Assembly (NCBI GenBank): GCA_045637805.1
Contig: JAZUAE010000012.1
Span: forward strand, 135,532 to 199,531
Direction of reading: 5' to 3'
From: Clostridia bacterium
GTDB taxonomy: Bacteria > Bacillota > Clostridia > Christensenellales > UBA1242
Length of the DNA: 64,000 nucleotides
Part shown: positions 22,768 through 60,700 of the stretch, in pieces
How the letters are laid out: every line of letters starts with the position of its first letter
How positions within the stretch are numbered: position 1 is the stretch's first letter
The notes under the pieces: generated by a model
Told to the model about the DNA's origin: nothing
Seen by the model: the letters and a program-made list of their open reading frames with translations, nothing else
The model's database searches: none
Made by a program: the position numbers and the translations under genes

Positions 22768-23757
22768 TTGGATACACAAAAGATAAAAAATCAAGACAGG
22801 GAAAATACAATCCTTGGTCGTGGAATTGCAGGCAAAGAAACTCAAATTGAGAGTGATAACACTCTCACTTTTTCTGATTCCAAAAAAGAAAAAAAGCCTT
22901 TTGTTTTAAAAAGGTTTTTAGTCAATATTATTGTTGTTATTGCTCTTGCTGTTTTCTCTGGTGTGCAAGTGGGTTTGTTTTATCTTGACACCTTTGTAAA
23001 GTCTTATGCACCTCCATCTGTTGCTGAGGAGTCTATTCGTGATGATACACTTGCCATATATTCTTCCAGTGTGGGCAAGTCTCCTGATGAGCTATCTGCA
23101 ATCAATGCTGTGATTGTGGCTGATTATCTTTTGACAAAATCAACCTCTGTTCAAAAAACTGTTTATGGTAAAGTTGTGGCGATGGGTGTAACTCAGGAAA
23201 TGTCTGCAGTGAAAAAGAGAGTTGGGGATAGGATTTATTCTGAAAAACTTTCTACCGGAATTTTAAGTGTTGGTAACGCTCATTATCATACACTTGGCAG
23301 CAATCTTTTTGAGTTTTATCAAGGCTCTAATGTTACAATTAATAGCGCTACTTGGCCAAGCAGTCCAAACTATACTTGGAGCTATGACGAATATATTTCT
23401 CATTTCAAGAGCAAGCCGGAATATTTCATCAATTACATCATTAGTAGCAAGACTGTTCAGGCAGCATCTATGACAAAAACTAGTGATGGAAACTTCAAAG
23501 TTTCCCTTGACCTTGACGCTGTTTATAGTGTTATAAATTATGTTTATGAAATTCGTGAAACATCGGGATCGTCTAAGTTTCCAAACTTTAAATCAGTACA
23601 TTTGGATATTGTGATGGACTCTGCATATCGCATTCTTACAATAGACATAAACGAACTTTATGATGTTGCTGTTGCTCAGCTCGGTGGTGGTTATGTTGAA
23701 ACCCGCGCTATAATGCAAGAGAAATTTTCATACGAGGGGGTAGTGATAGATGGCTAA
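22768..23757 (+). CDS. Membrane-anchored protein (329 aa), translationally coupled to the 2295-aa protein
   Basis: TTG start behind AAAGGG. One TM (FLVNIIVVIALAVFSGVQVGLFYL). The stop overlaps the next start (ATGGCTAA, 8-nt overlap). Candidate TTGCCA-17-TATACT promoter near 22709. Confidence 0.7.
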   Translation: MDTQKIKNQDRENTILGRGIAGKETQIESDNTLTFSDSKKEKKPFVLKRFLVNIIVVIALAVFSGVQVGLFYLDTFVKSYAPPSVAEESIRDDTLAIYSSSVGKSPDELSAINAVIVADYLLTKSTSVQKTVYGKVVAMGVTQEMSAVKKRVGDRIYSEKLSTGILSVGNAHYHTLGSNLFEFYQGSNVTINSATWPSSPNYTWSYDEYISHFKSKPEYFINYIISSKTVQAASMTKTSDGNFKVSLDLDAVYSVINYVYEIRETSGSSKFPNFKSVHLDIVMDSAYRILTIDINELYDVAVAQLGGGYVETRAIMQEKFSYEGVVIDG

Positions 23758-26700
23758 GAAACGAAAAAAGCTATTTAGCAAGACCGCTCTTGTTTATGTG
23801 CTCACATTTTTTGTTGTTACATTTTGTACAGCGTTTTTAACTGTGACTGTTAATTATGACAATTATCTTTTAAACAATTCGTCTAATCTTATGGCAAATA
23901 CTGGCAATGCAGGATCGTCTGCGTTGTCTACAACCATTTCTAACCTTATGAGCATTACTGGTGGAAATGTGAATGTGTCGATGTCTGCCGAAAGTGAAGA
24001 GGGTGAAAGTTTAGACATTGACGCTAACATTAAGCTCAAAATGCAGGGTGGACTTGATGGGTTTGAATGCAGCATTGATCTTGTACTCTATTTTAATGAT
24101 GAGCCTTTTGTTTTAAGGGTGGCTTGCATTAAAGGAATGGTATATATATCCGTAAATGATTCACACTTAAAGTTTAAGGCTGACAAATTTACGGACACTA
24201 TAGTTGGAATACTTGGCGTTGTTGGAATGGGCGCGGACGGTGCTGCTAGTATCGCATCTATGTTTGATATGAACTCTCTTATGAGTATTGCGTCATCTAT
24301 TCGCGAAGTTGCAATGGATAACGGTACAAGCCTCAAGGTTGAGGACGCAAACATGAACGTTTCAATGAATGTCGACGATAATTATATGTTGCAATCGGTT
24401 GATATATCTAGCATTGCCGTTGGTGGTTACACCGCATCAGGTGCAGTTACTATGAGTGACATTAACTCATCTAACATTGTGATCGAAACCCCATTAGATG
24501 ATACCGATTATGAAGACATTTCAGTGCCTATCAGGCTGTTTAGTGCGATTGCAAGTCTTTCAAACATGGACTTTGTTGCTGATGCTAGGGTAGACGCTTT
24601 AGGTGCAACTATTGATAGCAAGATTATTTATGATAAAAATCGCAACATCGGTAAGGTGAGCGTTGGCGCTGGTGCACTCGATTTTGATATTTATTTTAAT
24701 AATGGATCATTCTATCTAAACTCTAACAATGCGAAAATAAAAGCTGAAGATTTATCTGCTACAAGCTTTATTGCTGGACTCGGTGTTCTTTCAAATGAGG
24801 TGGGTAGCTACAGCGAAAGTGGAACAGCGTTCGACGCTTCGACTTTAACCAAACTTGATTTATCTAAGATTTTTAATCACTTCACGCTTGATGGTGACAA
24901 GATAAAGGTTTCTATGCTGCCGCAAGATATTTATTTTACACTAGACAGCAGTGACAAAATAACCAACATTTCGACAAATGGCGACATTTCTTGCAATATT
25001 GATTTCTCTTACACTGATCAATCAATTTACTTTGATGATTTTGGATATGTTCCGATTCAGGAAATGAACTGGGTGCTTAAACCTATTATGAATTTCTTGC
25101 AGGCAAGGCAGTTTAGTGCAACCATTGAATTTGACTATGGCGAGCTTTCAGGTGAGCTTATGATACGTGTTGACCTTGCAGATAGAAGAGCAATTCAGAT
25201 AAATACTGAGCTCTTTGGTAAGAAAATCGAAGTTATTGTTGAGGAGGATTATATACTCCTTCGAATTGATAAAGAGTCTACTAAAATAAGAAGTCAAGAT
25301 TCATTACTACTCGCACTTGCTATATTTGATAAATTCTCTGGCGAGATTGAAATTGATACTGCCATTAATATCCAAAATGTTTTGGATAACGCGATGCAAC
25401 TTGTTTTTGCCGATAAAAATGCACTCTTAATGCAGGGTAAAAATTCACGTCTTCAATATTCAGCTGATGGAACGATCTTGTTTGAAGGAGTTATCCTTGA
25501 CAAAAACCTTAGACTATTTATAGATATTGATAAAACCCCACGCAAAATCCGCGATTATGCGTTGAATCTTTATAGCGATTTTGTGTTTACGTCTGAGCTT
25601 GCACAAAACACTATCAACTATATCAATGGTAAGGTTTATAACTTTAGCATTTCGGGCGAGTATGATGGTAACAAGGTAGATGCTAAAATATTTGCAGACT
25701 TAAACGATTCAAGGTACGTTCTGGATATATCTTTTAATAATGAAAGTGTCAACATTGTTTGTCAAGACGACGTGTATTATGTTCAGTATCGTCAGTTTAA
25801 GTTCTATGGCAACCTAGAAAGCGCAATGGGATTACTTTGCAGCGCAATATCTGCATCTTCTGCTGATAAAAAGCTCGCGTCATCTATTGAAAGCATAGTG
25901 GCTGAGTTTGCTGCAAATATGCAAGATGTCGATATAATTGACGTTATAACAGGTATCAAAATAGGTGAGATTAATATAGCTGATAACAGCTTTGAAATCT
26001 CAATGGAAAAACTTGCTGGGCTTGAAAAAGTACTCGATATCCAAAATATTAAATTCAAACTTGTAACAGAGCAACACAATATAAAAACTGTTGGTGTGGA
26101 TTGTAAGGACACCAAACTTCAAATAGGCATTTCTAAGAAAATTGAGCCAAGGCTCACTGAAACTGAAATGGCAGCATACACAATCAGTTTAGACGACTTG
26201 TACGCTCTTGCAATTAATACTTATGATTATGTTCAAGGCGGTGCGTATATATTTGATATCTTCGCAGAGTATAACCAGTACTCAGTTGAGGGTAAACTTA
26301 GTGTTATAAATAGCGCTCTATTAGCCGACATTGCAATTAACATTCAAGGCGAAGAGGTGTTTGTAAAAATACTTGAAGGTAATATGTATATTAACTATGC
26401 AAACCTTGCATTTATAGCAGACCTTAATGATTTAGGTTTACTCATGAGTATTGCAAACAAGCTTGGTATTAACATAACTGAGAAAGATTTAGTTGGATTA
26501 ATGGGTCAACTTTTAGGCGCTTCTAAGTTAAAGTTTGGTGAAAACTCATTTGCTGAATTACTTAGTAAAATAAGCATAGACAAAATCGTGTTTAATAGAA
26601 ATGAAAGCAAATACAATGTAGGTTATGGCTACTATTTATTTACAGTTAATGCAGTTGACAACAAACTCAGCGGTGTTTCAACAAATATGCTTGGAACTGC

Positions 26701-29700
26701 TGTACAAATAACGCTTAGTGATGCATTTGACGTAACCCCTGTTGGTGACTATGTTGCTGTTAGTGACATCTTAAAAATTCTTTCAAATGAAATTGACTAC
26801 GCTAAAGGTGACATGGCGTTTAATATTGATTTTGAACTTAATGGCAAGCCTATAAACGGTAAGATTTACGTTTCAGGCGGAGTAGCTTCGGCTGTTATCC
26901 AAACTAAAGTTATGGGTCAAAAGTTTGAAGTTAAACTTATAGGTGATACACTTTACTTTGATATTAATGGTCTCAAGATTAGAGGCAATGCTTCCGATTA
27001 TGATAAGCTGTCATATATTGTCAATAAGTACACGGGCATTAATCTTCCAAGCATTACATCATTTAATATTAACGAAATCTACGAATTCTACAATGAGCTT
27101 ACTTTATTCGCTGAAAATAATCTTGGATTAAAATTGCCAGAAATTGATAAGTCTAATGTTGAAGAAAATATCGATCCATTAATGCTTCTTGGCGCATTGA
27201 AAAACTTAATAATTTCAAACACTGATGAAGGATACGGAATAAGTCTTGGCGGTCAAACTGTTTATGTAGAAACTGATAATGATAAGTTTGTAGGCTTATT
27301 TACAAATATTGCTGGCACAAACGTTAGCGCTTATAAAGATGATTTTGTAAAACTTACAGTTAACAAAGATTCGTTCATGATTGCGTCAGATGTAATTAAT
27401 GTTGTAGATAAGACAGTTAATACGCTTTCAACTAAGTGCATGACTGGGGAGATAGATTTATACTTCTACTTTGAGGGTATACAGCACAAGGTTGAAATTG
27501 ATTACAACATCAACTTTGAGAACTTGAATGATATTAGGGCAAAGATTAATGCTAAATTCAAGGGCGTTGATGCTGAAATTATTTATATAGATAAAATACT
27601 TTACATTAATGCTGCAGGACTTAAGTTCTATGCAAACATTGATGATTATAAGGATATCCTAGACTTTGTTCGCACAAGGTTTGGTGTTGAAACAGGTATT
27701 GAGGATATGCTTGATGAAATTACTCAAAACTTTAAAAACTTCGAATTTATTGAAGGTTGGATCTTTGACGATAAAGCTTCTGAGTTTAGTTTGAAGGGTG
27801 GACTTAAAATAGGACTAAACTACAGTGTTGATAAGATTTCATCAGTTGACTTTGCTCAAGGTTTAACGAGTGCACACATTACTCTTACACCTCCAGAGGA
27901 AATGGTTACTATTTCGGAGGTTACAGGTAATTATATTCATTATTCTGAAATCTTTGACTTAATCGATACAGTGATTTCAATGGGTGATGAAGAAGGCTTT
28001 AGTGTTAACGCGAATGCTACAGTATTCGAGGGTGAAAATGTAAAATTTGACATAGGTATTGACCTTGATTTAACAATCAAGAATATGTTAGGTTTCTATG
28101 GCAACGCAAAAGTTAAAGACGGAAATGATAAATTGTTATATGATGTTGAGGTTGCTCTTGAAAATCAAACAATTTATGTAGACTTTGACGGCCTCAGACT
28201 TGCAATGCATCAAAATAGCTTGCGTGAAATTTTTGTAATCGGGCTTTCAGTGCTTGGCATTGATGCCACAAGTATACCTTGGCTCAACGCTGTAGACGAA
28301 GAGTTTAAGGTGGTTCCAGAAAACTTGAAGAATATTATACCTGTATTAAAACTGGATACGCTTGGTATGATTTCAATAATTCAGTCTATGAGCTTTGAAA
28401 ATGAGATATTTGAAATTACACTCAAAGGTGAATTAATTTCAGAGCAGTCTACAAGACCTATGACTATTTCAATCGATTTCACTGGTGGTCAAATTAACTC
28501 TATTAATCTAGTTGATATTTATACTGGTGTAACTGATAGCGAATATTTTAATCTTTACCTTGAATTTGAAGAATTTGATTCAGTTCCTGTTATTGATAAG
28601 GTTGATGAAAATGGTAGAAAGTTTAACGATATCTCTGATTCAAGCGACTTGTTTAAGGCACTAATCAATACAACCGAACTCAATGATTACACAATTAATG
28701 GTACAGTTACATTCAACGCTGTTGATTTAATAAACATGAATATATTTGTTGAAGCGACAGTTAAGAAAATTGCAGATAGTTTCTACGCTGAAATTAATCT
28801 TTCAAACATTCCCGTTATTTCTTTATTAAACGGTACATTAGGAAAGACTATTAAAGATAGACGATTTAGTATTTATATGTACGACAACATTGTTTATTTA
28901 CATAGAACTGAGTATGAATATATTGACCATTGGTTCAGCGAAGACGAGTATATATTAATAGAAAAGAAACTCGCTATAACCATGGAGCAGTTCATGGGTG
29001 ATATGCTCGATTATATTATGTGCTTTGGTTTAGGATTTAAAGAAGATGGCAAGATAATGGAAGCAATTTATGCTTCAATAAAACAGCGTCCAGCAAACGA
29101 CCCTATTGACTTGGGTAACGTACTTGAACATTATGAGAAAGATGTGAATGGATTGCATTACTTGATTTTAAACATGAAAGAGATTGCATACAACAACGAC
29201 TTAAAAACTTTATCTGCTTGGATAGGTACAGTTAACTCGGCTGATACAGGGAATAAAGATTATGTTGGATTATTAAAGTTTGCTCTTGATATGCAGGTTA
29301 TGGGATTTGCCAACCTTAAGCTTTCGTCAAATGACTTACAGCTTATTAATATAGGAAAAGATGCAGATGTAAGCTATGCCGTTGATTATATCAATTCATA
29401 CAAATATAAGCTTGGTGAATGTTATGTAATATCTAATGGCAAAGAAACTTTGGAGTCTAACCTTACATACTTTGCATACTTCTATAACGGCACAGAGATT
29501 GTAAGAACTCAGGAGCTCAATACTGGCGAGGCATTAGATTTATCTGGTGTAAACAAGCCTGACGCTTATATAGGCGAAGTTAAGTACGCTTATACATTCA
29601 ATGGTTGGTACACAGACGCTGAATGCACTAAACTCTATACACAAACAACAATGCCTACCGGTGGAATAGCTCTTTATGCAGGCTTTACGCCAACAGCTTA

Positions 29701-30637
29701 TAGGTATGTGTACTTTGATGAGCAGGGTGGTGGATATGTTGATTATATTTGCACCCTTGCAGGAAACACTGTTCAAATCCCAACTCTTGCAAATAAGTTT
29801 GAAACAATAGGTGCTTACACTTATGAATATAAGCATGTCGGTTGGGTATTTGAAGGTGAAACTTACATTGACAGCTTTATACTCCCAGACAAAGACGTAA
29901 TACTTGTAGCCGAGTGGGAGTATGTGGGTCAGACTGCTGCAACTGCGCTCCTAACCATTGTGTTTGGTGACGGAAGCAAAGTGGAAGACAGAATTGAAGT
30001 GGGAACTACAATCAACTTTAGTCAATATGATGGCGTAGTATCTACGACAAAATTCTATAAAGATAACGCATTTACAACTTTAAACGATGTCACAGTAATG
30101 CCTTTTGAAAATATTGTACTATACGCTGCAAACGTTTATACTATTACGTTTAGTACTGGAACAAATCAAAAGGTAATTGAAAAAGAAGCCTATGAGGGTG
30201 AAAATGTATATCTTGAAACAAATGTCACAAGAGCGTACTACGATGATGGCTCTGTTAGAATAGATTATACATTCCTTGGTTGGTACTTTGCTGATGATGC
30301 TGACACGCTCTATAATGGATCGATAAAAATGCCAAACGGCGGCGGTCAATTGATTGCCAAGTGGAGAGAAACAACTAGAAATTATGTTACTATATCTTTC
30401 AAAGTTGATACAATCAGATCAATATACACCTGGCACTACTCAGCTGCGCCAACATCTATAAAATGGCTTGAGGGTGAGTATTTTGAAATAACTGTTCCGC
30501 AACCTACTGCTTATAGAAATAAACTATTTGGTGGTACCCAAAATGCAACATTCAAAGGCTGGAAGTATAACGGCTCAGTTGTTCCTGGATTCTATGTAAA
30601 TGGTAATACAACTCTAGAAGCTTCATGGAGTACTTAA
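23750..30637 (+). CDS. Giant surface protein (2295 aa): N-terminal TM anchor, ~9 repeats of a ~190-aa module, C-terminal Listeria-Bacteroides (InlB B-repeat type) repeats
   Basis: GAGGGGG RBS. TM segment ALVYVLTFFVVTFCTAFLTVTV. Recurrent module ending in ...LY(I/V/F)..(N/D)G.K.....(D/E)...L. C-terminal Y.V.FD..GG...F.GW....L.A.W units (e.g. YTFNGWYTD, TFLGWYFAD, TFKGWKYNG). Confidence 0.85.
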   Translation: MAKKRKKLFSKTALVYVLTFFVVTFCTAFLTVTVNYDNYLLNNSSNLMANTGNAGSSALSTTISNLMSITGGNVNVSMSAESEEGESLDIDANIKLKMQGGLDGFECSIDLVLYFNDEPFVLRVACIKGMVYISVNDSHLKFKADKFTDTIVGILGVVGMGADGAASIASMFDMNSLMSIASSIREVAMDNGTSLKVEDANMNVSMNVDDNYMLQSVDISSIAVGGYTASGAVTMSDINSSNIVIETPLDDTDYEDISVPIRLFSAIASLSNMDFVADARVDALGATIDSKIIYDKNRNIGKVSVGAGALDFDIYFNNGSFYLNSNNAKIKAEDLSATSFIAGLGVLSNEVGSYSESGTAFDASTLTKLDLSKIFNHFTLDGDKIKVSMLPQDIYFTLDSSDKITNISTNGDISCNIDFSYTDQSIYFDDFGYVPIQEMNWVLKPIMNFLQARQFSATIEFDYGELSGELMIRVDLADRRAIQINTELFGKKIEVIVEEDYILLRIDKESTKIRSQDSLLLALAIFDKFSGEIEIDTAINIQNVLDNAMQLVFADKNALLMQGKNSRLQYSADGTILFEGVILDKNLRLFIDIDKTPRKIRDYALNLYSDFVFTSELAQNTINYINGKVYNFSISGEYDGNKVDAKIFADLNDSRYVLDISFNNESVNIVCQDDVYYVQYRQFKFYGNLESAMGLLCSAISASSADKKLASSIESIVAEFAANMQDVDIIDVITGIKIGEINIADNSFEISMEKLAGLEKVLDIQNIKFKLVTEQHNIKTVGVDCKDTKLQIGISKKIEPRLTETEMAAYTISLDDLYALAINTYDYVQGGAYIFDIFAEYNQYSVEGKLSVINSALLADIAINIQGEEVFVKILEGNMYINYANLAFIADLNDLGLLMSIANKLGINITEKDLVGLMGQLLGASKLKFGENSFAELLSKISIDKIVFNRNESKYNVGYGYYLFTVNAVDNKLSGVSTNMLGTAVQITLSDAFDVTPVGDYVAVSDILKILSNEIDYAKGDMAFNIDFELNGKPINGKIYVSGGVASAVIQTKVMGQKFEVKLIGDTLYFDINGLKIRGNASDYDKLSYIVNKYTGINLPSITSFNINEIYEFYNELTLFAENNLGLKLPEIDKSNVEENIDPLMLLGALKNLIISNTDEGYGISLGGQTVYVETDNDKFVGLFTNIAGTNVSAYKDDFVKLTVNKDSFMIASDVINVVDKTVNTLSTKCMTGEIDLYFYFEGIQHKVEIDYNINFENLNDIRAKINAKFKGVDAEIIYIDKILYINAAGLKFYANIDDYKDILDFVRTRFGVETGIEDMLDEITQNFKNFEFIEGWIFDDKASEFSLKGGLKIGLNYSVDKISSVDFAQGLTSAHITLTPPEEMVTISEVTGNYIHYSEIFDLIDTVISMGDEEGFSVNANATVFEGENVKFDIGIDLDLTIKNMLGFYGNAKVKDGNDKLLYDVEVALENQTIYVDFDGLRLAMHQNSLREIFVIGLSVLGIDATSIPWLNAVDEEFKVVPENLKNIIPVLKLDTLGMISIIQSMSFENEIFEITLKGELISEQSTRPMTISIDFTGGQINSINLVDIYTGVTDSEYFNLYLEFEEFDSVPVIDKVDENGRKFNDISDSSDLFKALINTTELNDYTINGTVTFNAVDLINMNIFVEATVKKIADSFYAEINLSNIPVISLLNGTLGKTIKDRRFSIYMYDNIVYLHRTEYEYIDHWFSEDEYILIEKKLAITMEQFMGDMLDYIMCFGLGFKEDGKIMEAIYASIKQRPANDPIDLGNVLEHYEKDVNGLHYLILNMKEIAYNNDLKTLSAWIGTVNSADTGNKDYVGLLKFALDMQVMGFANLKLSSNDLQLINIGKDADVSYAVDYINSYKYKLGECYVISNGKETLESNLTYFAYFYNGTEIVRTQELNTGEALDLSGVNKPDAYIGEVKYAYTFNGWYTDAECTKLYTQTTMPTGGIALYAGFTPTAYRYVYFDEQGGGYVDYICTLAGNTVQIPTLANKFETIGAYTYEYKHVGWVFEGETYIDSFILPDKDVILVAEWEYVGQTAATALLTIVFGDGSKVEDRIEVGTTINFSQYDGVVSTTKFYKDNAFTTLNDVTVMPFENIVLYAANVYTITFSTGTNQKVIEKEAYEGENVYLETNVTRAYYDDGSVRIDYTFLGWYFADDADTLYNGSIKMPNGGGQLIAKWRETTRNYVTISFKVDTIRSIYTWHYSAAPTSIKWLEGEYFEITVPQPTAYRNKLFGGTQNATFKGWKYNGSVVPGFYVNGNTTLEASWST

Positions 30638-31250: not shown

Positions 31251-31338
31251 GCACGAAAAAGCACTTAATTTGTCGAAGATATTGTAAAAGTTGGCTTATT
31301 ATGTTATAAATGGTTTATAAACAAAAGGAGAATTATTT

Positions 31339-32478
31339 ATGACGGTTAAAGAGTATTTAATTAATGAGTTTGGGTTTACTGAAAGCAAAGCTGAGGATAT
31401 TTTAAGAGTATCAAGAATGACAGATATTGAGCTTGTAAAAAGTAAACTTAAAGAAATTTCACATTTCTTAAATCTTAATGTAAACGAACTAAAGAAGACT
31501 ATTTCTAGCTGGCCACAAACATTAAACATTAGCGTAGAAAATGTAAAAGGAAAGGCTGAGTTTTATAAAAAAGAGTATGGCATGACCCTGCCTCAGTTTA
31601 GAAAGATGGTTAAAATTAATTTTGCGCCAATTCATGCGTCAACCAAAAAAGTGAAAGAACTTGAAGATTACTATTACGTGGCTTGGGGCATGAGTAAAGA
31701 GCAATTTGTTGCTAAAATGAAACGCGTGCCAGGATTTGTCGGTATGACTCCTGAAAGCGTAGATAAGAGAACAAGAGAGATAGGGTTGCAGTATGGTATG
31801 AGCCATGGTGACCTTGAAAAGCTAGTTAAGTCTGGAACAAACTTTCCATGCGTTGCTCTAGATAAAATATATGAAATGGCAGATTTCTTTGAAAGAGAGT
31901 TTTTTATAGATGGAGATACTTTTGGGAAAATGCTCGTTTCAGGCAAACCTATTTCTTACACAAAAGAAAAGATTACTGAAAATTATGAGTATCTTAAAAA
32001 AAGATTTGCGCTTTCTAAATTGCAATATGGCACAATGATTCAAAGATGCCCAACAGTGCTCGGTTTTTCATCAAAAACGCTTGAGGGACGTATTGCTAAA
32101 CTTCAAGAACTTGGTTTAGACTTAGACACAATAGTGGATAGGGCGCGCACTCTAACCGTTAACCAGAGCAAAATGAAGGCAAGATACATGTACGCTAAAC
32201 TTAATGGTTGCACAGAAGATAAATTTCTAAGTAACGGTTTTATGTATGATATTAAGAACGTACATGCAAGAACTGTGTATGTAAAAAATGAGAATTTGCC
32301 GATGAGTTATATCTATCTTCCTGAAAAGAAGTTTGCTATGCGTACAGGTGTAAAAACTGCCGAAATTATAAGTGAAAATTTCAATATGAATGATTTATAT
32401 GAATATTTGCAATCACAATATAATGCATCATTTGAAGATGGTGTAACTTTAGCTGAGGAGGATATGGTAAATGACTAA
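31339..32478 (+). CDS. mTERF-like helical-repeat protein (379 aa)
   Basis: AAAGGAG RBS. About 9 consecutive ~35-aa units of the form G(M/F/L)(S/T)..(Q/E)(F/L)..(M/L)(V/I)...P.(V/I)(L/G)..S...(L/V)..(K/R)...(L/F). Example: RCPTVLGFSSKTLEGRIAKLQELGLDLDTIVD. Confidence 0.6.
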   Translation: MTVKEYLINEFGFTESKAEDILRVSRMTDIELVKSKLKEISHFLNLNVNELKKTISSWPQTLNISVENVKGKAEFYKKEYGMTLPQFRKMVKINFAPIHASTKKVKELEDYYYVAWGMSKEQFVAKMKRVPGFVGMTPESVDKRTREIGLQYGMSHGDLEKLVKSGTNFPCVALDKIYEMADFFEREFFIDGDTFGKMLVSGKPISYTKEKITENYEYLKKRFALSKLQYGTMIQRCPTVLGFSSKTLEGRIAKLQELGLDLDTIVDRARTLTVNQSKMKARYMYAKLNGCTEDKFLSNGFMYDIKNVHARTVYVKNENLPMSYIYLPEKKFAMRTGVKTAEIISENFNMNDLYEYLQSQYNASFEDGVTLAEEDMVND

Positions 32479-32755
32479 GAAAACTCTCTTATATTTAAAA
32501 GATCTTGGTCTTTCTGCTGAAGACGTTGAAATTCTCTTGGAGGTCGCTCCAGAAATAATGGACGCAGCAGATGACGATATTATAAAAAATATTGAACTTG
32601 TGATCAGTTATGGTTATCCGAGATTAGATATCGGAACCTTAATTCAGGTAAACCCATTATTTTTAATCATTTCTGAGGAACTTTTAGATGACTTGCTCAG
32701 AGATCTCGGCTCAAACATTGAGGAAAAATTAAAAGCAAACCCATTCTTGATTTAA
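32471..32755 (+). CDS. Small mTERF-like repeat protein (94 aa)
   Basis: Start overlaps the upstream stop (ATGACTAA). YLKDLGLSAEDVEILLEVAPEIMDAADDDIIKNIELVISYGYPRLDIGTLIQVNPLFLIISEELLDDLLRDLG closely follows the plant/animal mTERF motif (FL..LG.S...I..I....P.IL..S.E..L). Confidence 0.6.
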   Translation: MTKKTLLYLKDLGLSAEDVEILLEVAPEIMDAADDDIIKNIELVISYGYPRLDIGTLIQVNPLFLIISEELLDDLLRDLGSNIEEKLKANPFLI

Positions 32756-32781: not shown

Positions 32782-33363
32782 ATGAATATTGAAAAAGAAG
32801 TACGCTATAGAGTAAATAAACAGCAAATTAAGAACATTCTTGTGGCTACAGAGGCTTATAAAGAAAGAGTAAGAATGTTGGACATGACTTTTGGTTATAA
32901 TGGTTTCGAATCTCTATCAAAATTTGGTTTTATTTGTAGAATTAGGCAAAAACCAAACAAAATTGCACTTGAAGTAAAGAAGAAAATTCCTGAGGGGTGG
33001 CTTGAACAAGAAATTAAGCTTGATAATCTCTCTGATGGCATTAATTACTTTAATCTTGTTGGAATGACTTGCTATATGTATCTTGATAGATATAGAGAAG
33101 TGAGAAAGTTTGGCAATTTAAAAATATTTATCGACGAAATTGATGTTGTGGGTGATTTTGTTGAAATCGAGTATCAAGATTCAAATGAAGGAAAATTAGA
33201 AATAAACTCTTTTCTAAAAAGCGTAGGACTCCAAAATGCAAAAGAAGAGGAGCTCTATGGTGATATTATTAAAAAACAACTAGAGACTGACAGCGACTTT
33301 GCAGAAAAATATAAAAAGGGACTAGAAGGGATAATTAATAATTCAAAAACAAACTGTTTTTAA
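32782..33363 (+). CDS. CYTH-domain protein (CyaB/ThTPase superfamily)
   Basis: N-terminal EKEVRY (ExExK/R signature). Central ...LEVKKK... and C-terminal IFIDEIDVVGDFVEIEY strands typical of the CYTH tunnel fold. Confidence 0.7.
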   Translation: MNIEKEVRYRVNKQQIKNILVATEAYKERVRMLDMTFGYNGFESLSKFGFICRIRQKPNKIALEVKKKIPEGWLEQEIKLDNLSDGINYFNLVGMTCYMYLDRYREVRKFGNLKIFIDEIDVVGDFVEIEYQDSNEGKLEINSFLKSVGLQNAKEEELYGDIIKKQLETDSDFAEKYKKGLEGIINNSKTNCF

Positions 33364-33379
33364 TGTACAGGCTAGATTA

Positions 33380-33407
33380 TTGACAATATATGAAAATCTG
33401 ATATAAT
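33380..33407 (+). promoter_or_regulatory. Sigma-70 type promoter (TTGACA-16-TATAAT)
   Basis: Perfect -35 at 33380-33385 and perfect -10 at 33402-33407. This places the GTG at 33408 from the ORF track outside the likely transcript. Confidence 0.65.
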
Positions 33408-33434
33408 GTGAATAATAAAATTTTGAGGTGTTTT

Positions 33435-34223
33435 ATGGCAATTCAAAAGGTGAATGGAATAATTCCTAAAGAGATTGTTGATGCTGTGGCAAATAATGGT
33501 GTTGAAGAAATTATAGGCTTATCTATAAAACAAGATGTGTCACAACCACAAAAATTGTCTAGAGCAGATAAAAAATTCAACGCATTAAGACAAAAAATGA
33601 TAGCAGAGGCTTTTTGTATATCAAAAGAAGAACTTGCAACTTTTTATGCTGATTACGAGGCGGGATTAAATGGTGACACGAGAAAAAATGATAATAGAAT
33701 AGACAAACTTAGACGCCAACGTGGTATTTTTCGTGTTCAGCGAGGTTCTAATATTAATGATAAAAATGATACAATTAGAAATGCTGTTACGAATATCACA
33801 ACGTTGTTTTTAGGTGTAATTATACCTAATGAGTTTATAACACTACCTATAAGATTCGCCGCTTGTTCTATAGGTATAGGGTATAGTGTTTATAGATATA
33901 ACAAACGTAAACATGGTAATCGTTGTGATGAATTTGCAAAACAAGAAAGTTATGAAAAAAGTTTAAATGCGTTTATTGAAGACGCTAAAAGACTTGATCA
34001 GGCAATGTATGAAGATAGGGAATATATTAGCGATGCAAAAAAAGCTTTGAGCAGACGTGAATATAATGAATTTAGAAAAGAGTATTTAAAAGAAAAAATT
34101 GAAGAGCTAAATATTGAATCTCCATTTTTAACAGACAAAAAGATTAAACAAAAGTTGAAAGATATGCCAAGCAATGTAAATGCTGGTTTTAATAAAAGTT
34201 TATTTGCTGAGGTGGTTGTGTAA
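33435..34223 (+). CDS. Membrane protein (262 aa) with central hydrophobic hairpin and coiled-coil-like C-terminus
   Basis: Start moved to ATG 33435 behind TGAGGTG. Hydrophobic stretch NITTLFLGVIIPNEFITLPIRFAACSIGIGYSVY. Confidence 0.65.
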   Translation: MAIQKVNGIIPKEIVDAVANNGVEEIIGLSIKQDVSQPQKLSRADKKFNALRQKMIAEAFCISKEELATFYADYEAGLNGDTRKNDNRIDKLRRQRGIFRVQRGSNINDKNDTIRNAVTNITTLFLGVIIPNEFITLPIRFAACSIGIGYSVYRYNKRKHGNRCDEFAKQESYEKSLNAFIEDAKRLDQAMYEDREYISDAKKALSRREYNEFRKEYLKEKIEELNIESPFLTDKKIKQKLKDMPSNVNAGFNKSLFAEVVV

Positions 34224-34721: not shown

Positions 34722-34807
34722 TGGTGCCGGTAGTCGGGGTCGAACCGACATGAAGTTTCCCTCGGCAGATTTTGAGTCTGCTGCGTCTGCCATTCCGCCA
34801 CACCGGC
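34722..34807 (-). tRNA. tRNA-Leu (anticodon CAA), CCA encoded
   Basis: Reverse complement is GCCGGTGTGGCGGAATGGCAGACGCAGCAGACTCAAAATCTGCCGAGGGAAACTTCATGTCGGTTCGACCCCGACTACCGGCACCA. It has a 7-bp acceptor stem, anticodon loop CTCAAAA, a long variable arm and a GGTTCGA T-loop. Confidence 0.92.
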
Positions 34808-35351: not shown

Positions 35352-35437
35352 GCGAGGATGGCGGAATCGGTAGACGCGCTCGTTTAAGGGGCGAGTGGTT
35401 AACAGCCGTGAGAGTTCGAGTCTCTTTCCTCGCACCA
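35352..35437 (+). tRNA. tRNA-Leu, anticodon AAG by canonical hand fold, CCA encoded
   Basis: GCGAGGATGGCGGAATCGGTAGACGCGCTCGTTTAAGGGGCGAGTGGTTAACAGCCGTGAGAGTTCGAGTCTCTTTCCTCGCACCA. Acceptor GCGAGGA/TCCTCGC. Anticodon stem CTCGT/GCGAG leaves loop TTAAGGG (U33, A34-A35-G36, G37). Long variable arm and TTCGAGT T-loop. Confidence 0.85.
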
Positions 35438-51770: not shown

Positions 51771-54700
51771 TTACATAAAGATATTTCTAAATGGAGAGTT
51801 GTTTGGCAATTTGTTAATGAGGTTATCAATAAGAGCTATAGTATAGACTGCAACGCCAGCTACTGAAAGGGCTAAGAGAACTGTACCGATTACTGTTGTT
51901 GCAAGACCAGCAGTGAAGTAGGTTAATAAACCAACACCAACAGCTGTAACTGTTGCGATACCAATAATTCCAGCAGGAATTTCGTCCCAGTCACGGTCTT
52001 GGTAGTAGATTCTTTGGGTATCGTCGAGTGATATTTGAAGATGAGTAATATCTTTACCGATCGATCCTCCAAATGCATTCTTTTCAGGAGTTGTTGATGT
52101 GAACGCTAGGGTTTCAGCCTCTACTTGTGGACCTTGTTTTAATGAAAGTATATTAATAGCTTCTTGTATTGTCATTTCATTGCTTTGAGAAGAACTATTA
52201 AGTGCAGATGTACTTTTTGCATCGTGTGTTCCAAGAACACTTGTTATTGTGAAACCACAATTTGTAAGAGTTTTATAATATTTATAACCCTTGTCAGCCC
52301 ACCAAACAATTCTAGGTAAAATCCATGTCTTTTCCGAAACTGATAAATTTGTCTGTTCAGCGTTATGGACTGTTACGTAACTATCAAACCTGATTGTATC
52401 ACCAAAGTTGTAGTTGGTTGCAATAAGGTCAGCAAAGTTAGACGATTGATAATTTTTTACATTTCCACTTGTATAAATGTCACTATTTAAGTATTCCATG
52501 TATTTTCCTACGTTAATAGTTTTGTACTCGAAGAAATTGTTTAAATCATCATAACCTTTAAAGTTTGTATCAAACAATATGTTAATAAGTCTATCTATGT
52601 TTAGGAAACGTTTAATGCTTACATCGCCACCATGATCAAGTATATCTGTAATGTTAACATATCCAGTTGAAAGTATGTTGTTTTGTATGTCTTCATTTAT
52701 ATCAACTGAAGATAAGATATTGATCAGTTGAACAATGAATGTGTAAGCTGCAGCATATAAGTTGTTTCTTTGTTCTGATCCATTAAATCCAACACCCCAA
52801 ACAATATTTCTTTTAAGTTCTTCCGCAAAAGATCTTTCGTTTTCTAGGAAAGCATCTACATGATTTTTAGGAGTATCAGCAGGGTTAGGGAAGTATGTGT
52901 CAAGCATAGCGTTTAGTCTTGAAAGATAAGTTTCAGTACCCTTAATGATTGTTACATACATTCCTGAAAAGTTGTTTGTAAATTGTTTATATGCATTTCT
53001 AAAAGTATCCTGATCTTTATATAACTCTCCAAGATAGGTTACTGTTTTCGCATTTTTGCCTTCCCAGTATTTATTGTGGCAATCAGCTTTTGGATAATTA
53101 TTATTATCTGGTTCACCACCGATATCAGTAAACTTTAAATCGACGATTTGCGCGTTATACATGAAGTTTGCCTTAATATTAAGGTTTATGTTAGATGGCA
53201 TAGGGTCGGTGTCTTGTCGGTTGATGTAGAAGCCACTAATTTGATTACTTGATGTTGAGGTTGGCATATTTGTGCTGAGAATGTTTTTACCAGAGTATAA
53301 GTCGTAAGCATAGCTGTCGTTTTTAGTGTAATCTACAGCAGAAACATTGAATGAATGCGCCGTTACAACATTGTCTTGGATAAGGCTATTTTTTGTACCC
53401 ATTTGAACGTTTACAACAGGGAACGCTCCATTTTCGTTTTGTACGAAAAGTTTGATGGTGATAGTCTTATTATCAAAGTCTATGTCTAAGCGTACTCTTT
53501 TCTTTACGTCGTTATAATATGTGTTGATATCTTCTGGTGTTGAACCGAAAGATATGTTGATTAAGCCTTCAATTAATGAGTAGCCTTCATCTTTAATGCG
53601 ATCATTGTTATCAACCTTTTCAATGTAATCGTTAATATGGGTAAGCGTTGTGTTTGAGTAGTAAGACATTATAGTGTATATCTGAATATTTTTGTTGTTT
53701 TCAGGATTGTATATTTCACTTAGTCCGTCGAAATCCGTCTCATCTTCAATAGGAGTGTATTTGATATAGTAGTTAGAACCACTGGCATGTACAAGATAAC
53801 CGCCATCGTACATATATCTAAAGTAAGGATCTGAACCGTCAGATATGCCATTTACGTAAACAGGTTCATTATTTTTATAAATGAGGTGACCGGTTGCTTT
53901 TGATTTTGCAAGGTCGATGAGGTTAAGACCGATTTTTGTAAAGTATGGTAGCTTATGTCCTGAGTCATCAACGTTTGTATATACATAAGGTGAAAGTGAA
54001 TTTACGTCTTCCTCTTTATTAATCTTGTGAACTTCCTCTGTGAATACAATTTCAGTTGAAGATTCTCCTTTGTCGGTAAGAGTTGTTACACCTAAGATTT
54101 CAGCAAGTTTAATATTAATTACAAGAGACTCAGACAGATAGAACGCGTTGATGGTTATATCTTCTGTAACTGCATAAACCTTAAGGTTGTTTCTGCTCGA
54201 AAGCTGAGATTCAACTGCGTTAATTTGCATTGTCTTGTTGTAAAGACGGTTTTCGGTATCACCGGTAATTGCTTGTGGGTTATAGATGCTATACGATTTT
54301 GTCGTAGCCTTTAAGCCGTCGTAGTCTATGTTCATTTGATTTTTATACGATGATATATCTGCATCAAGGTCTGAACCGTTGTTAAATTGTATATCGCTAC
54401 CTGTCCAAGAAAGAACTTGTGATGAAAGTGCTGTGTTTGTATCAACCCAAGCTGTATTTGTGGTTTTATAACCTGTCCAACCAACGATCTTAAATCCAGG
54501 GTAGTTGATTGATGCAAACATTGCGTTACTGTTAGCTTCAACTAAAAGGTTACCAGTAACTGAACCAAGATCTGAGTTGTGAACTGAGTAATCTGTTGGC
54601 TCAATAACGATTTGTTGATCTTCTTCATCAAGAATAGGAGATTCTCCATCTAATGCAACAGAGGCTTCAACATTGTTAACTGTAATCTTGAATGTTTTAG

Positions 54701-57700
54701 CTTCATATAGAGCAAAAATTAATGTATCTGCAGAAATTGTTGCATCAGCTGTGTAGTAATTACCAGATATATTGTAGTTTGAACCTATTTTAATCAAACT
54801 CATGAGTGAGTTTAATGGAGAAGTAGGCTCAGACACTGCATCTATATAATGGTTCAACACTTCCTTGTTTGAAAGGTTAGTCGTAACATTTGAAAGTGGA
54901 CTAACGTATGCACTTGTAACGGAATAGAAACCTTTGAAGAAATAATTATCTTTAATCTCAGCTTTGAGTGTAACAGATGTATCCTTTGCAATTATTACGC
55001 CAGAATTATTAAGACCTGTGTACTTGTTAAAGATATAATCAGTTGTCTTATTACTTGAAGCAGATGTTGAAACTTCTGCTTTTTGATCAGAAGATAGTGC
55101 TGCATCTTCTTGAACACCTATATCAGTAGTTTGATTCTTATCGGCAAGTGATAGAATATATGTATCTTTAGTTTTCCATGAATTGTTAATTAATTCATAT
55201 AAATATTTATTGCGAAGTGCAACAAATTCCTCGCCGCCATCAGCTTTAGTACTGTCATATAGATTCTTCAACTGATTTATTATTACGTCGATTCCGGTTG
55301 AGAAGTAGTTGACATTGATTATTTTTGAAAGTAATGCGTAATCTATTCCAAGTTCAATATTAAATTTTGTTTGGATAGGTGTGTTATAAGTTTCGATATC
55401 GATAGCTTTTACGTCACGAATCATTTTTGATATATATTCTTCTTGTGCTCCAGTTGGGAATTCCGTTATCAAAATAGCACTGAGTGGATTTTTATCCAGT
55501 AGAGGATATGTATCAAACGAGAAGTTGTCTTTAGAGTATGTGCTTCCTTCAATCATATAGCCAAGACCATGAAGCGCTGAAAGAACTATAACAAATTTGT
55601 TTTGAGGAATTGATTCATGATAGTTGAATGTAATAGCTGTATCTGCATTTGCTGTAAATACATGAGTAAGTGTTTGAGCAAGTATAGTTTTGCCATCACT
55701 GTCTAATGTGTTTTGTATCGTATTAAATGCGGTAATATCAGACAATGATTTGTTAACTTTCTTGGTTGCAGATAGTATATATGGGATAGAATCATTATTC
55801 TTACGTGTGTACGTAGAACTTACACGAACGAGAAGGTGAGGCTCTACATAAGCACCAGTTGTAGAAATTTGTTGCCATGAGCTGTTATAGTAAACTTCAA
55901 GTTTTTGTGTATAATCACCATCATAAGTTGTAGTATTAGTGCTTTTAACTACATTAACGCTTGGAGTAACTAGTTTTATTGTCTGAATTTGAATTGTTGA
56001 GTCAACTAAGAAATTTTCAGTATTGATTGAAATAGAATTGTCGTATTTATTTGTGTTTAAAATTTCTAATGTTTTAGCATTAACAAAGTTCGTTATGCGG
56101 TAGTGGTTATACTCATAAACAGATGCTCCGCTTAAAATGTCTGTTGTTTCTATAAAATCACATGGGGTAATAGTGAATTCAGAGTATCTACCAACAGGAT
56201 AAACAATAGTTTTGTTAGAGCCTTTTAATTGATAAGTATAATTATTCTCGCTTTCGATATACGAAACTTGTGTATCTGCGCTCAACTTATAGTTATAACG
56301 ATTATTTTCTGTTGATTTTTGTTCATAGTCTTTATTGTTTATGTAGATATCATTATCGAAATCTATTGAAATTGTACGAGTATTGATTGTTAGATGTGCG
56401 TATAATGAATATCTGTAACCCGATTGACTTCCAACTGTTGATCCCGCATGAATGCCATCTGAAAGGGTAACGCGGCTGCTTGTTGTAAATATTCCTTTAG
56501 ATAAATCACGAGAATTTGAATAACCATTCATTGTGAATGAGTTGTTTACGGCATAAATCTCAAGTGCGTGAGCATCTGATAGGTGACAATAAACACTTTT
56601 GAATGTTATTTCTGTTGAAGTAAATTCTGTAATTTCAAGTTCTTCAGTGCTTCCGTCAGGGTAAACTATTCGAGCTTTAATTAAAGAATTGATGTCTGTA
56701 TTAAACTCTTTAATATCTGCTATAGCATAGATTTGATAAACGATATACCTTGAGTGGTTAATCATAACCTGATGAATTGATGAGTTTGAAGTTGTAGGAT
56801 TGAATATTATTTCATCTACAGCTCCAACAATATTAAACGTCATATCAAATTTGTCGTTGTTGTAAGAAACATTTACGAAAGAGTCTCTTGCTATCTTTAA
56901 GAAGTCATCATCTGATTTACTAGATAAAGCTAATATTACACTCTTCAAATCAGATTCGTAGAAGTCACCAGATTTAAGTGAACTTATATAAGGATCAGAA
57001 TTTGATTCACCTGTCCAGTTAGCGGTATCAGTGTTTGAATCAGCGTCATACATATAATATGTGTAAGTATCTTCATCAAGGGTGTAATCGTTAGGATCAA
57101 TACCATTAATGTAAAGTGATACAAGTTTAACATAATATGGTTTGATTTGAACGTCATATTTTGCAAGAAGCTCATTACTTATAGTTATCTTTATTGCCTT
57201 AATTGCATAGCCATCGCTTGTAGGTAATAATGATGGATACTTTGTTACTATAATAGATGTAGGTGCAACGTCTGTTATTCCATAAGATTCGCCTTTTGAT
57301 GTCTCTGTGAAACTTTGATTAAGTATCTGGAAGTCACTATCAACGCCATTAACCTTAATCATTACGTGACTGATTGCGTAGCCATCAATGCTTGAAATGT
57401 TAACAACGTTGCGGTCAAGTTCTGTTACACCAAAGCCGAATGTGTCTTCTTGGTTTTCAACAATAACTTGATGTTCAATTCCAACAGTTGCAACAATATC
57501 TTTTGAATCAAAGTTTAAAGCATAGAACTGATAAGCTGGGGTTTTGTTAGATCCAGGAATTTCAATATTATTCACTGTGTATGACATGTGCATATCAATC
57601 TTGTTTCGGTTTAGAAGGTAGATTGTGATAAGTTCGCCGTGTTTAGCAGTAAACTTAGCAGTATCATTTGTTTCCTTTGTAAAGTTGAATGATTGAATCT

Positions 57701-60700
57701 CTTTTCCACTGTATATGTCGTTAACTATTACAACGTATTCAACATCAGACTCTTCATTACCTTCAACTTTGAATGTAAATTCGTATTCGTCTCTAGTTGT
57801 TGATTCCTTTATGATAGATGATATGTCTACAACTTTTGTTATGGTGCTTGAGTAGTTACCATTAGAAACTTTGTAAGTAATGAGATAACCAACTTGTACT
57901 GTTTCAAATGAGTGGGCAACATCTGTTATAGCTATTTCACCGACTTCGTCAAGTGTCATGTCGTTGACATCACCTTTTTGAGCAAATCCATTAATTACGC
58001 TACCAGTAAAATTATAACTTGTGCCAGCTAATACTTTAAAGTGATAGCTGTTATCATTATATGCAGATGATAGGAAGTTGCCTAATGCGCTTTGAACATA
58101 TGATGATGCTATGTTACCAGTTATGTTGTATGTATTTAGGTCAAGTGTGCCATCGAGTGTAACGTTATATGTGATATCAACTAATTTAACAAACCTTGCA
58201 ACCTTGTGGATAATACCATTAGATATTGCGCTGTTGTAATTATTTGAAATCTTGATGTAAGAAGATCCTGTCTCCTTAATTTCAGCATACCAACCGATGA
58301 ATAGGTAAGTATTGCCGTTATAAGTTACTGTCGGAATTGACGCATCAAGCATTGTAAGAGCTGATTTGTTAACCTTTGTAAAGGTTGAGCCATTGTCAGA
58401 AATTTCAAAGCTTTCAGATTTCTCATAAGTGTCTGGAGCTGCTGTCTTGTCATACTTAGCAATTGTTGCTATGTTTTTCTCAACTGTGAATGAAAAACTG
58501 TTTGAATATGAGTACACAGAGATAGAACTTGATGGTTGTTCATTATTGTAAATATAGAAACCTTGGAAATTATAGTTTACATTAACCTGATTATTAATGT
58601 TATCTTCTGTTTTTCTTATATTGATCTCAGTGCCGTAAGGAACACTTGTTGTGTAAGAAAGGACAGATGATTCAGGTTTATACAGTGTAAGAGGTATAGT
58701 AGCATTGAAAGTTTCTGAATAAGGATATTTGAAAGCAATAAGCAATGTTTGGTTTAGGTCGTCGGCATAATCATTGCCTCCGATGAGATCTATAACTGAA
58801 TCGGCATAGTTACTATTTTCAACAGCTAAACGAATATCTATGTTGAAGTTTTTAACAAATCTTGCTTCTATAACAAGGTGATTTGCTGCATTGAATGTAT
58901 AATCAACATTTGCAATATTGCTATAGCTACCAAATTTATATTCGCCGTTAATAAAGTAACCTACGAATGTGTATCCTGTATTAACATATACTTCTGGAAG
59001 TGTAATACTTGTACCGATATCGCTTACAGTGAATATTGTTTTTTCAGGGGTGCTAATTGTACCACCGATTGCATTGCTTTCAGCCTCGCCATTGATTGTT
59101 CTAGTAACGTATGAAATGTTGTATTTTGTAGCATATTTAGCAGTAACTTTTGCGGTGTTTAAATAGTAAGATGTTCCTGAAAGGGTATAGTTAAAATCAG
59201 ATGAAACAAATTCGTCATTTACATACCAACCGAGGAATATATGTGTCTTAATGTTGTCCGCAACTAACATTAAATCAATATTTTTTCTTATTATAAACTG
59301 TTTGCTTTCATAATTATCAAGACTAATAGAATTAATTTCACTGAAAATGCCTTGCTTTGAATCTGTTGCTGGATCAATGTAATCGTGAACAAAAGAACCA
59401 AGTGCTTTAACTGTTAGGCTTGAGTTGTTTGAAAGTTCGCCATCAACTTCACGAATTACAGTTACGACATTTGTTTCAAGGAACTTAGCAACAATCATCA
59501 ATTTTTTAGTTTCGTTAGTCATGTCTTTTGTGATTGTAAAACCTTCGTTAGATGAAACAAACTTGCCGTTTACATACCAACCAGCAAATGTTAATTTGCT
59601 AGACTTTTCAATCATTGTTATAGTTGGCTCGATTGTTTTAGGGTAAGCAATTTCTTCAGCATATGAAAATGTTTTTTCAAATGATCCATCGAAATGGAAT
59701 TTAAATATATATGCATTTGTTGGTTGACCGTCAACCTCAGGTATGAAGTTAACAACAATTGCGCCTGTAATTCTGATTAATATATTAGTAGAGTCGCTTG
59801 ATTGCTCTATAAAATATTGATCAGCATAAGGTGTATCTATATATTTAGTAACAATAGGTTCTTTTGCAGAATAGAATGTGAATGAGTTTTTATACACATT
59901 ACCTGTAAGACCTTTAGTAAACAATTCATTGCTTAAAGTTACAGTTTTGTTGTGTCCGTATATATCCACATAGGCGATATGGATTTGGAACGTATTTTTC
60001 ATATCGTCTAAAGTATCGCCATCGTTTAAGAACACTTCAGTATTGTATGTGTATTGTTTGTATTTATTATATTCAAACAATAAATCAACAGTTTTTCCAG
60101 CATTTTGACTGATTGCTGGTACTTGATAGTTAAAGTTAGTGTCGGTAGAAATTAGTGTGCCGTTAGCCTTCATTCCAGTAAAGGCGTAACTAAACAGTGT
60201 TGTAGTTACATATTTGCTAGGAACATCAATGTTTATAACAGTGCCTGCAGGAACTTTAAATGAGTCCCTTAGTATTATATGTTCAACTTCTGAACCATAC
60301 TGATTTTTGTATCTAAAGTATAATGATTGTAAGTATAAATAATAATTATCACTAGGTACTTGTTGGCTAACGTTTATTGTAATGTATGGAACATAACATA
60401 TTTTAATATCCATGTCGCCAGTAACAGTTGCTTCATATGAACCATCTGATGGGATATTTTCTTGCTCTCCGTTAACAAATATTTTAACAGGGATTAAGCC
60501 GTTTATTTCAGTTGTTAAATTTCTAATCGTGAATTCATCACCGATTTCTAGTGAGTCTATAGAAAATGTCGATACTTTTGGTGATGACGGTTGCAATATA
60601 GCCAAATGGTAACCATCGAAATTAAAATATGCTTTAAACGCTTTTGGTTTTCCTTGGAGTTCAACACTGTCATATTCTAATAATTGAATATTTGCTTTAT

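Follow-up and report, generated by a model that had tools for sequence, protein, structure and literature searches.

The window analysed here is a stretch of 64,000 nucleotides (nt) from a Clostridia bacterium (contig JAZUAE010000012.1 of assembly GCA_045637805.1). On its forward strand lie two overlapping genes for proteins in the mTERF (mitochondrial transcription termination factor) family. The long open reading frame (ORF) encodes 379 amino acids (aa) (31339..32478) and the short ORF encodes 94 aa (32471..32755). They share the 8 nt ATGACTAA (32471..32478, +), so that the short gene begins inside the stop region of its long neighbour. The original prediction, made from the DNA letters alone, had described this overlap and quoted a peptide from each protein; both were confirmed, as the short protein has YLKDLG...SYG at residue 8 and the long one has RCPTVLG...IVD at residue 236. 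The long protein is a true member of the mTERF sequence and fold family, and the pair, together with a charge asymmetry between its two products, is conserved across genomes.

Expression signals of the pair were found by direct reading of the DNA. A probable promoter lies at 31282..31310 (+), with a -35 element TTGTAA (31282-31287), a 17-nt spacer and an extended -10 element TGTTATAAA (31302-31310). The automated promoter scan skipped this site because it demands T as position 6 of the -10 hexamer. At the equivalent position, sigma-70 promoters were found in two orthologous loci, TTGCAA-16-TATAAT (L014) and TTGTCA-17-TATAAT (L041). In these three loci, the window locus included, the pair probably has its own promoter upstream of the long gene. 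A 7-bp palindrome over the putative -10 element was considered as an operator and rejected, as orthologous loci lack it. The long gene has a Shine-Dalgarno sequence, AAGGAG (31325..31330, +), with the ATG 8 nt downstream. That of the short gene, GAGGAGG (32455..32461, +), lies inside the 3' end of the long ORF, 9 nt upstream of the short ATG. This placement and the overlap ATGACTAA fit translational coupling of the two genes.

Repeat structure of the two proteins

The long protein matches the Pfam family PF02536 (mTERF) over three stretches with 53.6 bits (E 2e-14) against a cut-off of 23.1, and its relatives score 43-169 bits. The mTERF identity proposed at the outset is thus significant for the long protein. 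The short protein reaches 22.7 bits (E 5e-5), slightly below the cut-off, and its orthologues P0007-P0009 have a precomputed PF02536 match. Chance cannot plausibly account for these repeats. In the Pfam scan of the pair mTERF was the only family found, and neither protein has a match in NCBIfam.

Structure predictions agree with this assignment. The AlphaFold model of the long protein is all helical, with a predicted local distance difference test score (pLDDT) of 88.4 and a predicted template modelling score (pTM) of 0.77. Its 11 best Foldseek matches are all mTERF proteins, in the order human MTERF1-DNA complexes, MTERF3, the Tetrahymena mitoribosomal protein mS93 and MTERF4; for MTERF1 the comparison gives E 3e-7 and a template modelling score (TM) of 0.47-0.53 over ~350 columns. 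TAL effectors rank after the mTERFs in the same list (E 6e-4 to 6e-2). The model of the short protein (pLDDT 95.2) has eight helices in about three repeats, and its 17 best matches are again all mTERF proteins, with MTERF3 at the top (TM 0.80, root-mean-square deviation 2.7 Å). Both predicted folds match mTERF first, not TPR or HEAT, the other helical-repeat classes that had been named as possible outcomes. Moreover, a profile built from the orthologues and run against every PDB sequence found mTERF proteins exclusively, with MTERF3 best (E 7e-7) and MTERF1 at E 5e-6.

When the long protein was cut at the AlphaFold helix boundaries, it resolved into contiguous 36-residue units, of which about seven are canonical and two to three degenerate, ~9-10 in total. 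These units and the three of the short protein all align under the common pattern V..K...Y..EYGM(S/T)..EF.KM....P..L..S, and in both models each repeat has a long, a medium and a short helix. The 36-residue period, found in both proteins, upholds the earlier description of units of ~30-35 aa. The canonical repeat region spans residues 30-275 (31426..32163, +) and holds seven units, six with the mTERF proline. In the long protein this hallmark proline stands at residues 59, 97, 131, 170, 204 and 238. The short protein has it at residues 28, 62 and 91, and its third repeat is truncated just past the proline to leave a conserved NPFLI terminus.

The remainder of the long protein is a C-terminal module of ~100 residues (residues 276-379; 32164..32475, +), made of two degenerate repeats and terminal helices, with the motif ..K.RY....(F/W)(M/I).S..K..AR..YL.....E..F.K..G. 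Within it R311, F332 and Y361 are invariant columns of the orthologue alignment A1. The module was found in 110/157 representative proteins, mostly at the C-terminal end, and is absent from the GC-rich, eukaryote-like matches. By this distribution it is the signature of a distinct bacterial mTERF clade.

A conserved two-gene unit and its single-chain counterpart

In all 15 pair loci that were inspected (15 genomes), a long mTERF gene is followed immediately, on the same strand, by a gene of 93-99 aa. The long genes range from 334 to 608 aa, varying through the number of repeats, and in one genome (G089) the long gene is duplicated in tandem. The junction between long and short gene lies between -22 and +20 nt in 15/15 pairs, counting from the real start in three loci with over-called ORFs, and the sequences at the junction differ. 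The short proteins are a close-knit set of orthologues, scoring 94-121 bits with their own profile in the 15 loci, and have the conserved motifs GYP, NP and D(I/V)E..LK.NPF.I. Further, the short-gene profile finds a stand-alone frame of ~95-130 aa in 34/201 genomes of the family, and 29 of these 34 belong to the 36 genomes with a Pfam mTERF match.

These data bear on whether the pair could be an artefact. Overlapping frames could stem from an indel, so that a single gene would be split by a frameshift error, and mTERF is otherwise a eukaryotic family, which would allow for eukaryotic contamination of the metagenome-assembled genome (MAG). The chance of either is negligible, and the artefact reading is already refuted by the conservation data: 15/15 loci show the split, their junction sequences differ, and a ribosome-binding site of its own precedes the short gene. 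In addition, the genes lie between bacterial genes on a 229-kb bacterial contig with synteny to a sister species, and the clade-specific C-terminal module is missing in the eukaryote-like matches.

The two products differ consistently in charge. In the window the long protein is basic (pI 8.7, net +5) and the short protein strongly acidic (pI 4.1, net -11.5). Across the pairs the long proteins have a pI of 8.7-9.5 and a net charge of +5 to +29, and the short proteins a pI of 4.0-5.1 and a net charge of -2.5 to -15.5. The asymmetry falls within these pI ranges in 13/15 pairs; the two remaining short values are skewed by over-called N-termini. Charge compensation between long and short subunits showed no clear pattern across genomes.

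A single-chain form of the system was also found. The same genome carries a third mTERF gene on another contig (G000:C19:32077-33681; L013:6078-7682), which encodes 534 aa and is syntenic in G001 and G048, where it lies between lipoprotein-like and membrane-protein genes, near lepA and a UvrD-like helicase. Proteins of this form (520-560 aa) consist of repeats, the C-terminal module, a linker and a short-like C-terminal domain, an order that mirrors the operon and suggests that the long and the short protein work as one particle. The single-chain form is the sole mTERF in four g72 genomes and in G048, and all five lack a separate short gene.

A small, very acidic protein tightly coupled to a large basic one also recalls a conflict or addiction module, in which the basic solenoid would be harmful or directed at invaders and the acidic mini-mTERF would neutralise it as a nucleic-acid mimic or antitoxin-like partner. 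The patchy distribution, quick divergence and variable repeat number described below would suit such a module. It is nevertheless improbable. The pair has no enzymatic domain and matches no toxin-antitoxin or known defence family; PADLOC defence models, PHROGs and phage genomes (tblastn) gave nothing meaningful, and a phage or defence origin was rejected on this ground. Its neighbours are housekeeping genes, and it sits outside defence islands and mobile elements. Moreover, in the single-chain form the short-like domain is permanently attached, which is a poor fit for an inhibitor.

Genes flanking the pair vary by genome and include those for an amidase, a SpoU methylase, RNase III, QueH, NDK, TsaD, ArgRS and L20, among others. 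An all-against-all comparison of 173 flanking ORFs revealed no third conserved gene. In the window, a CYTH-domain gene (32782..33363, +; Pfam CYTH, 28.1 bits) begins 26 nt 3' of the short gene. No terminator was predicted between the two, and the CYTH gene is possibly co-transcribed with the pair in this genome. It adjoins the pair here only, and relatives have other genes downstream, which puts it outside the conserved module. Beyond it a perfect consensus promoter (33380-33407, +; TTGACA-16-TATAAT with an upstream TG) directly precedes a 271-aa gene (33408-34223) that has no Pfam match. Farther downstream, ARAGORN calls a tRNA-Leu with the anticodon AAG (A34) at 35352-35437 (+). At its gathering threshold the Rfam tRNA model reports only the other tRNA-Leu (34725-34807), and because of this miss the tRNA-Leu (AAG) looks atypical.

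Variants of the mTERF genes themselves were also seen. In two genomes the mTERF repeats lie within frames of 900-1361 aa and the small partner gene still comes after them (G211:C17:3126-4263 and G189:C61:64596-65724). Another mTERF frame (G079:C15:8143-8838) has five in-frame stops and is probably a pseudogene.

Distribution and evolutionary tempo

The host has a genome of 1.10 Mb (96% complete), and bacterial genes neighbour the pair on its contig. The nearest relatives by lepA are MAGs of uncultured gut Clostridia (labelled Christensenellaceae, Candidatus Scatosoma or Borkfalkiaceae) from humans, rabbits, chickens and, in several cases, ruminants. The host is accordingly taken to belong to a small-genome family of the Christensenellales type. 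PF02536 matches were found in 36/201 genomes and 23/58 genera of the host's own GTDB family, in 0 of ~287 genomes from other families of the same order, and in one further genome among ~390 of the class outside the family. A sample of 401 genomes from the phylum yielded three matches outside the family, one of them strong. Even inside genera the occurrence is patchy, with mTERF in some species only. Within the phylum mTERF is therefore restricted to this lineage of ~1-Mb genomes, patchy there and sporadic elsewhere.

When 1.84 billion representative proteins were searched exhaustively with HMMER, 1153 matches were obtained at E <= 1e-3, 285 of them at E <= 1e-10. The best 150 are mixed: the majority are AT-rich and bacterial-looking, and a minority are GC-richer and eukaryotic-looking, with starts that resemble signal or transit peptides. 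Eight AT-rich proteins of 590-870 aa (P0036, P0050, P0064, P0089, P0109, P0135, P0149 and P0151) match the mTERF repeats, lack the C-terminal module and have similar N-termini (e.g. ...KPTFKQIDLSENEK); they may constitute a further undescribed subfamily. The phylum sample also yielded a pair in a genome of 2.8 Mb that belongs to a different family (G1167:C57; L033:5066-7123, -). Here a more canonical mTERF of 441 aa (144 bits on PF02536) is followed after 267 nt by a 154-aa mTERF protein, with bacterial neighbours such as a response regulator. Its architecture differs from that of the window pair.

The original prediction had held mTERF to be characterised almost exclusively in eukaryotes. Recent literature says so in part, as, according to two recent plant papers, prokaryotes have no mTERF. 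On the other side, prokaryotic mTERF-like tandem-repeat proteins from Bacillota MAGs, named pTERF, were published in 2024 as DNA binders, with Clostridia MAGs among their sources (Hu et al., Nucleic Acids Res 2024, PMC11417379). The same prediction had offered, as speculation, a link between the pair and repeated sequence motifs. This link gained no support: Gut-1-type (heptamer-hairpin) repeats (RF01706) occur in 16/201 genomes and share three with mTERF, against 2.9 expected by chance, and the host genome is unmatched at the threshold used for the 201-genome search. These repeats were rejected as a partner of the pair.

The pair also evolves quickly. Between the two species of the genus, protein identity is 87.5% for lepA, 83% for RarA, 82% for a helicase and 80% for GDPD. 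The corresponding values are 40% for the long mTERF, 36% for the short mTERF and 38% for the single-chain mTERF, close to the 40% of a giant surface protein of 2295 aa encoded next door (23750-30637, +). Given this low identity, the varying repeat number and the patchy distribution, the pair is a dispensable, rapidly diversifying cassette and not a core factor. Two further very large ORFs lie in the window of this 1.1-Mb genome, at 51771-63917 (-; at least 4048 aa) and 3-4817 (+; at least 1604 aa).

MTERF1 is a transcription terminator, and the family of the host appears to be poor in Rho. The host genome has no Rho (best match 18.8 bits), and none of the 201 family genomes reaches the curated Rho cut-off. 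Such a background would suit an mTERF that serves as a substitute terminator, making up for the loss of Rho in the lineage. The distribution makes this very improbable, since Rho-like genes (32/201) and mTERF (36/201) coincide in 6 genomes against 5.7 expected, which reveals no complementary pattern, and mTERF is also missing from most of the family's Rho-less genomes. The Rho-like genes of these 32 genomes are full-length and strongly divergent (72-197 bits), some with an in-frame TAA, and throughout the family Rho appears lost or in decay.

Ligand, partner and function

Among known systems pTERF is the closest kind, and it provides the sole experimental evidence on the type of ligand. The likeness was drawn from the published description. 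According to the part of the paper that describes them, pTERF proteins come from MAGs of uncultured gut Clostridia and Bacillota, as the window protein does, and consist of 3-11 tandem mTERF-motif units of ~35-36 residues and three helices, a range within which the window protein falls. Their AlphaFold fold resembles MTERF1, at ~10-20% identity to eukaryotic mTERFs. pTERF1 (GenBank MBQ3414883.1, from ruminant-gut Clostridia) binds ACTNNNAGTC with a Kd of 1.9 nM, pTERF2 binds a different motif, and both have nanomolar affinity for double-stranded DNA (dsDNA) (PMC11417379). Neither a small acidic partner gene nor a C-terminal module nor a single-chain form is mentioned in the pTERF section of that paper. 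Measured against that section, what is new here is the conserved arrangement in two genes, the C-terminal module specific to the clade, the single-chain form and the sharp confinement to one lineage.

Other known systems resemble the pair in part. MTERF1 (PDB 3MVA/3MVB), a repeat solenoid that wraps nucleic acid, resembles the long protein most closely in structure. It differs in being nuclear-encoded, imported into mitochondria and a single chain, with ~11-12% identity to the long protein. Unlike organellar mTERFs in general, the pair is encoded in a bacterial chromosome with Shine-Dalgarno sites, and it is therefore a member of the family rather than of the organellar functional class. MTERF4 acts as a heterodimer with a partner protein, NSUN4; however, this partner is an rRNA methyltransferase and not a mini-mTERF, and no methyltransferase is conserved beside the bacterial pair. 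TAL effectors and TALE-like proteins (dHax3, PthXo1, BurrH), the second-tier structural match, are solenoids from bacteria in which each repeat reads one DNA base. Their repeats have 33-35 residues, two helices and hypervariable di-residues, whereas the repeats in the window are degenerate and have no obvious code positions.

On these analogies the most likely reading, proposed with moderate confidence, is that the pair, a self-contained cassette, makes a solenoid that binds DNA sequence-specifically, has a coupled small subunit and works as a dispensable regulator or roadblock. The basic 379-aa protein would wind about ten tandem 36-residue mTERF repeats into a superhelix, with the clade-specific C-terminal module closing it. 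By analogy with pTERF1, pTERF2 and human MTERF1, it would bind a specific dsDNA site along its inner surface and, once bound, would serve as a lineage-specific regulator or as a roadblock to transcription or replication that the cell can do without. Translational coupling would supply the acidic mini-mTERF in fixed proportion. This small protein would most likely bind the long subunit, where it would extend or cap the solenoid beside the C-terminal module or tune access to DNA. We infer all three of its central elements, namely DNA rather than RNA as the ligand, the physical association of the subunits and the regulatory role.

The choice of ligand is where this DNA-binding proposal meets its closest competitor. 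This rival is an RNA-binding factor for assembly or processing: like MTERF3, MTERF4-NSUN4, the mitoribosomal mS93 or plant splicing mTERFs, the pair would attach to rRNA, tRNA or other structured RNA and aid its maturation in a reduced genome. The long model also resembles MTERF3, MTERF4 and mS93, MTERF3 is its best PDB sequence match, and both MTERF3 and MTERF4-NSUN4 bind rRNA on the mitoribosome. A SpoU/RlmB-type rRNA methyltransferase gene is found near the pair in 3/15 loci, directly downstream in G053, and the genes for QueH, TsaD, RNase III, ArgRS and L20 also occur among its neighbours. Nonetheless, none of these RNA-related genes is a constant neighbour, and a 1-Mb genome commonly contains genes of this sort. 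Most genomes and genera of the family lack the pair, as do some species within a genus, and it diverges as quickly as a surface protein; patchiness and fast divergence are unlike core ribosome-biogenesis factors. A role in group II intron splicing was rejected, as the host genome has no match to RF00029. Finally, the only bacterial relatives that have been tested, the pTERF proteins, bind dsDNA according to the section that describes them (PMC11417379). Taken together, an RNA-binding factor is rather unlikely.

Several observations weigh against the proposal of a DNA-binding solenoid with an associated small subunit. The single-chain form was considered as a fusion (Rosetta-stone) proof of subunit association and was set aside as suggestive. 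In hhalign comparisons the short profile scores 72 against the C-terminus of the single-chain form (E 3e-10) and 69 against its internal repeat (E 1e-9), and it scores ~51 against the repeats of the paired long proteins. Moreover, the short-like C-terminal domain of the single-chain form is not acidic. The fusion argument stays suggestive because the internal repeat is matched almost equally and because the fused domain lacks the acidic character. As to the ligand, eukaryotic mTERFs bind RNA as often as DNA. In addition, pTERF1 as described lacks the canonical proline and hydrophobic pattern (PMC11417379), which the long protein keeps, and the protein may therefore belong to a different bacterial subfamily.

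A bolder version of the DNA-binding proposal can also be formulated. Here the acidic mini-mTERF would serve as an obligate second subunit, gating or completing a DNA reader that is natively bacterial and encoded in repeats. The result would be a two-component programmable system for DNA binding, of a kind absent from the main text of the pTERF report. The bacterial clade, marked by its C-terminal module, would then stand as an ancient sister group beside the eukaryotic mTERFs instead of stemming from a recent transfer out of eukaryotes. This version is considered unlikely.

In one lineage of gut Clostridia with genomes of ~1 Mb, mTERF is normally one half of a unit made of a basic solenoid and an acidic mini-mTERF. 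Should the small subunit control or complete the recognition of DNA, in-vitro studies confined to the large subunit would overlook part of the system. Such a role, if true, would bear on which targets are regulated and on attempts to re-program these proteins. The restricted and patchy distribution of the bacterial proteins bears, in turn, on the origin of the eukaryotic mTERF family.

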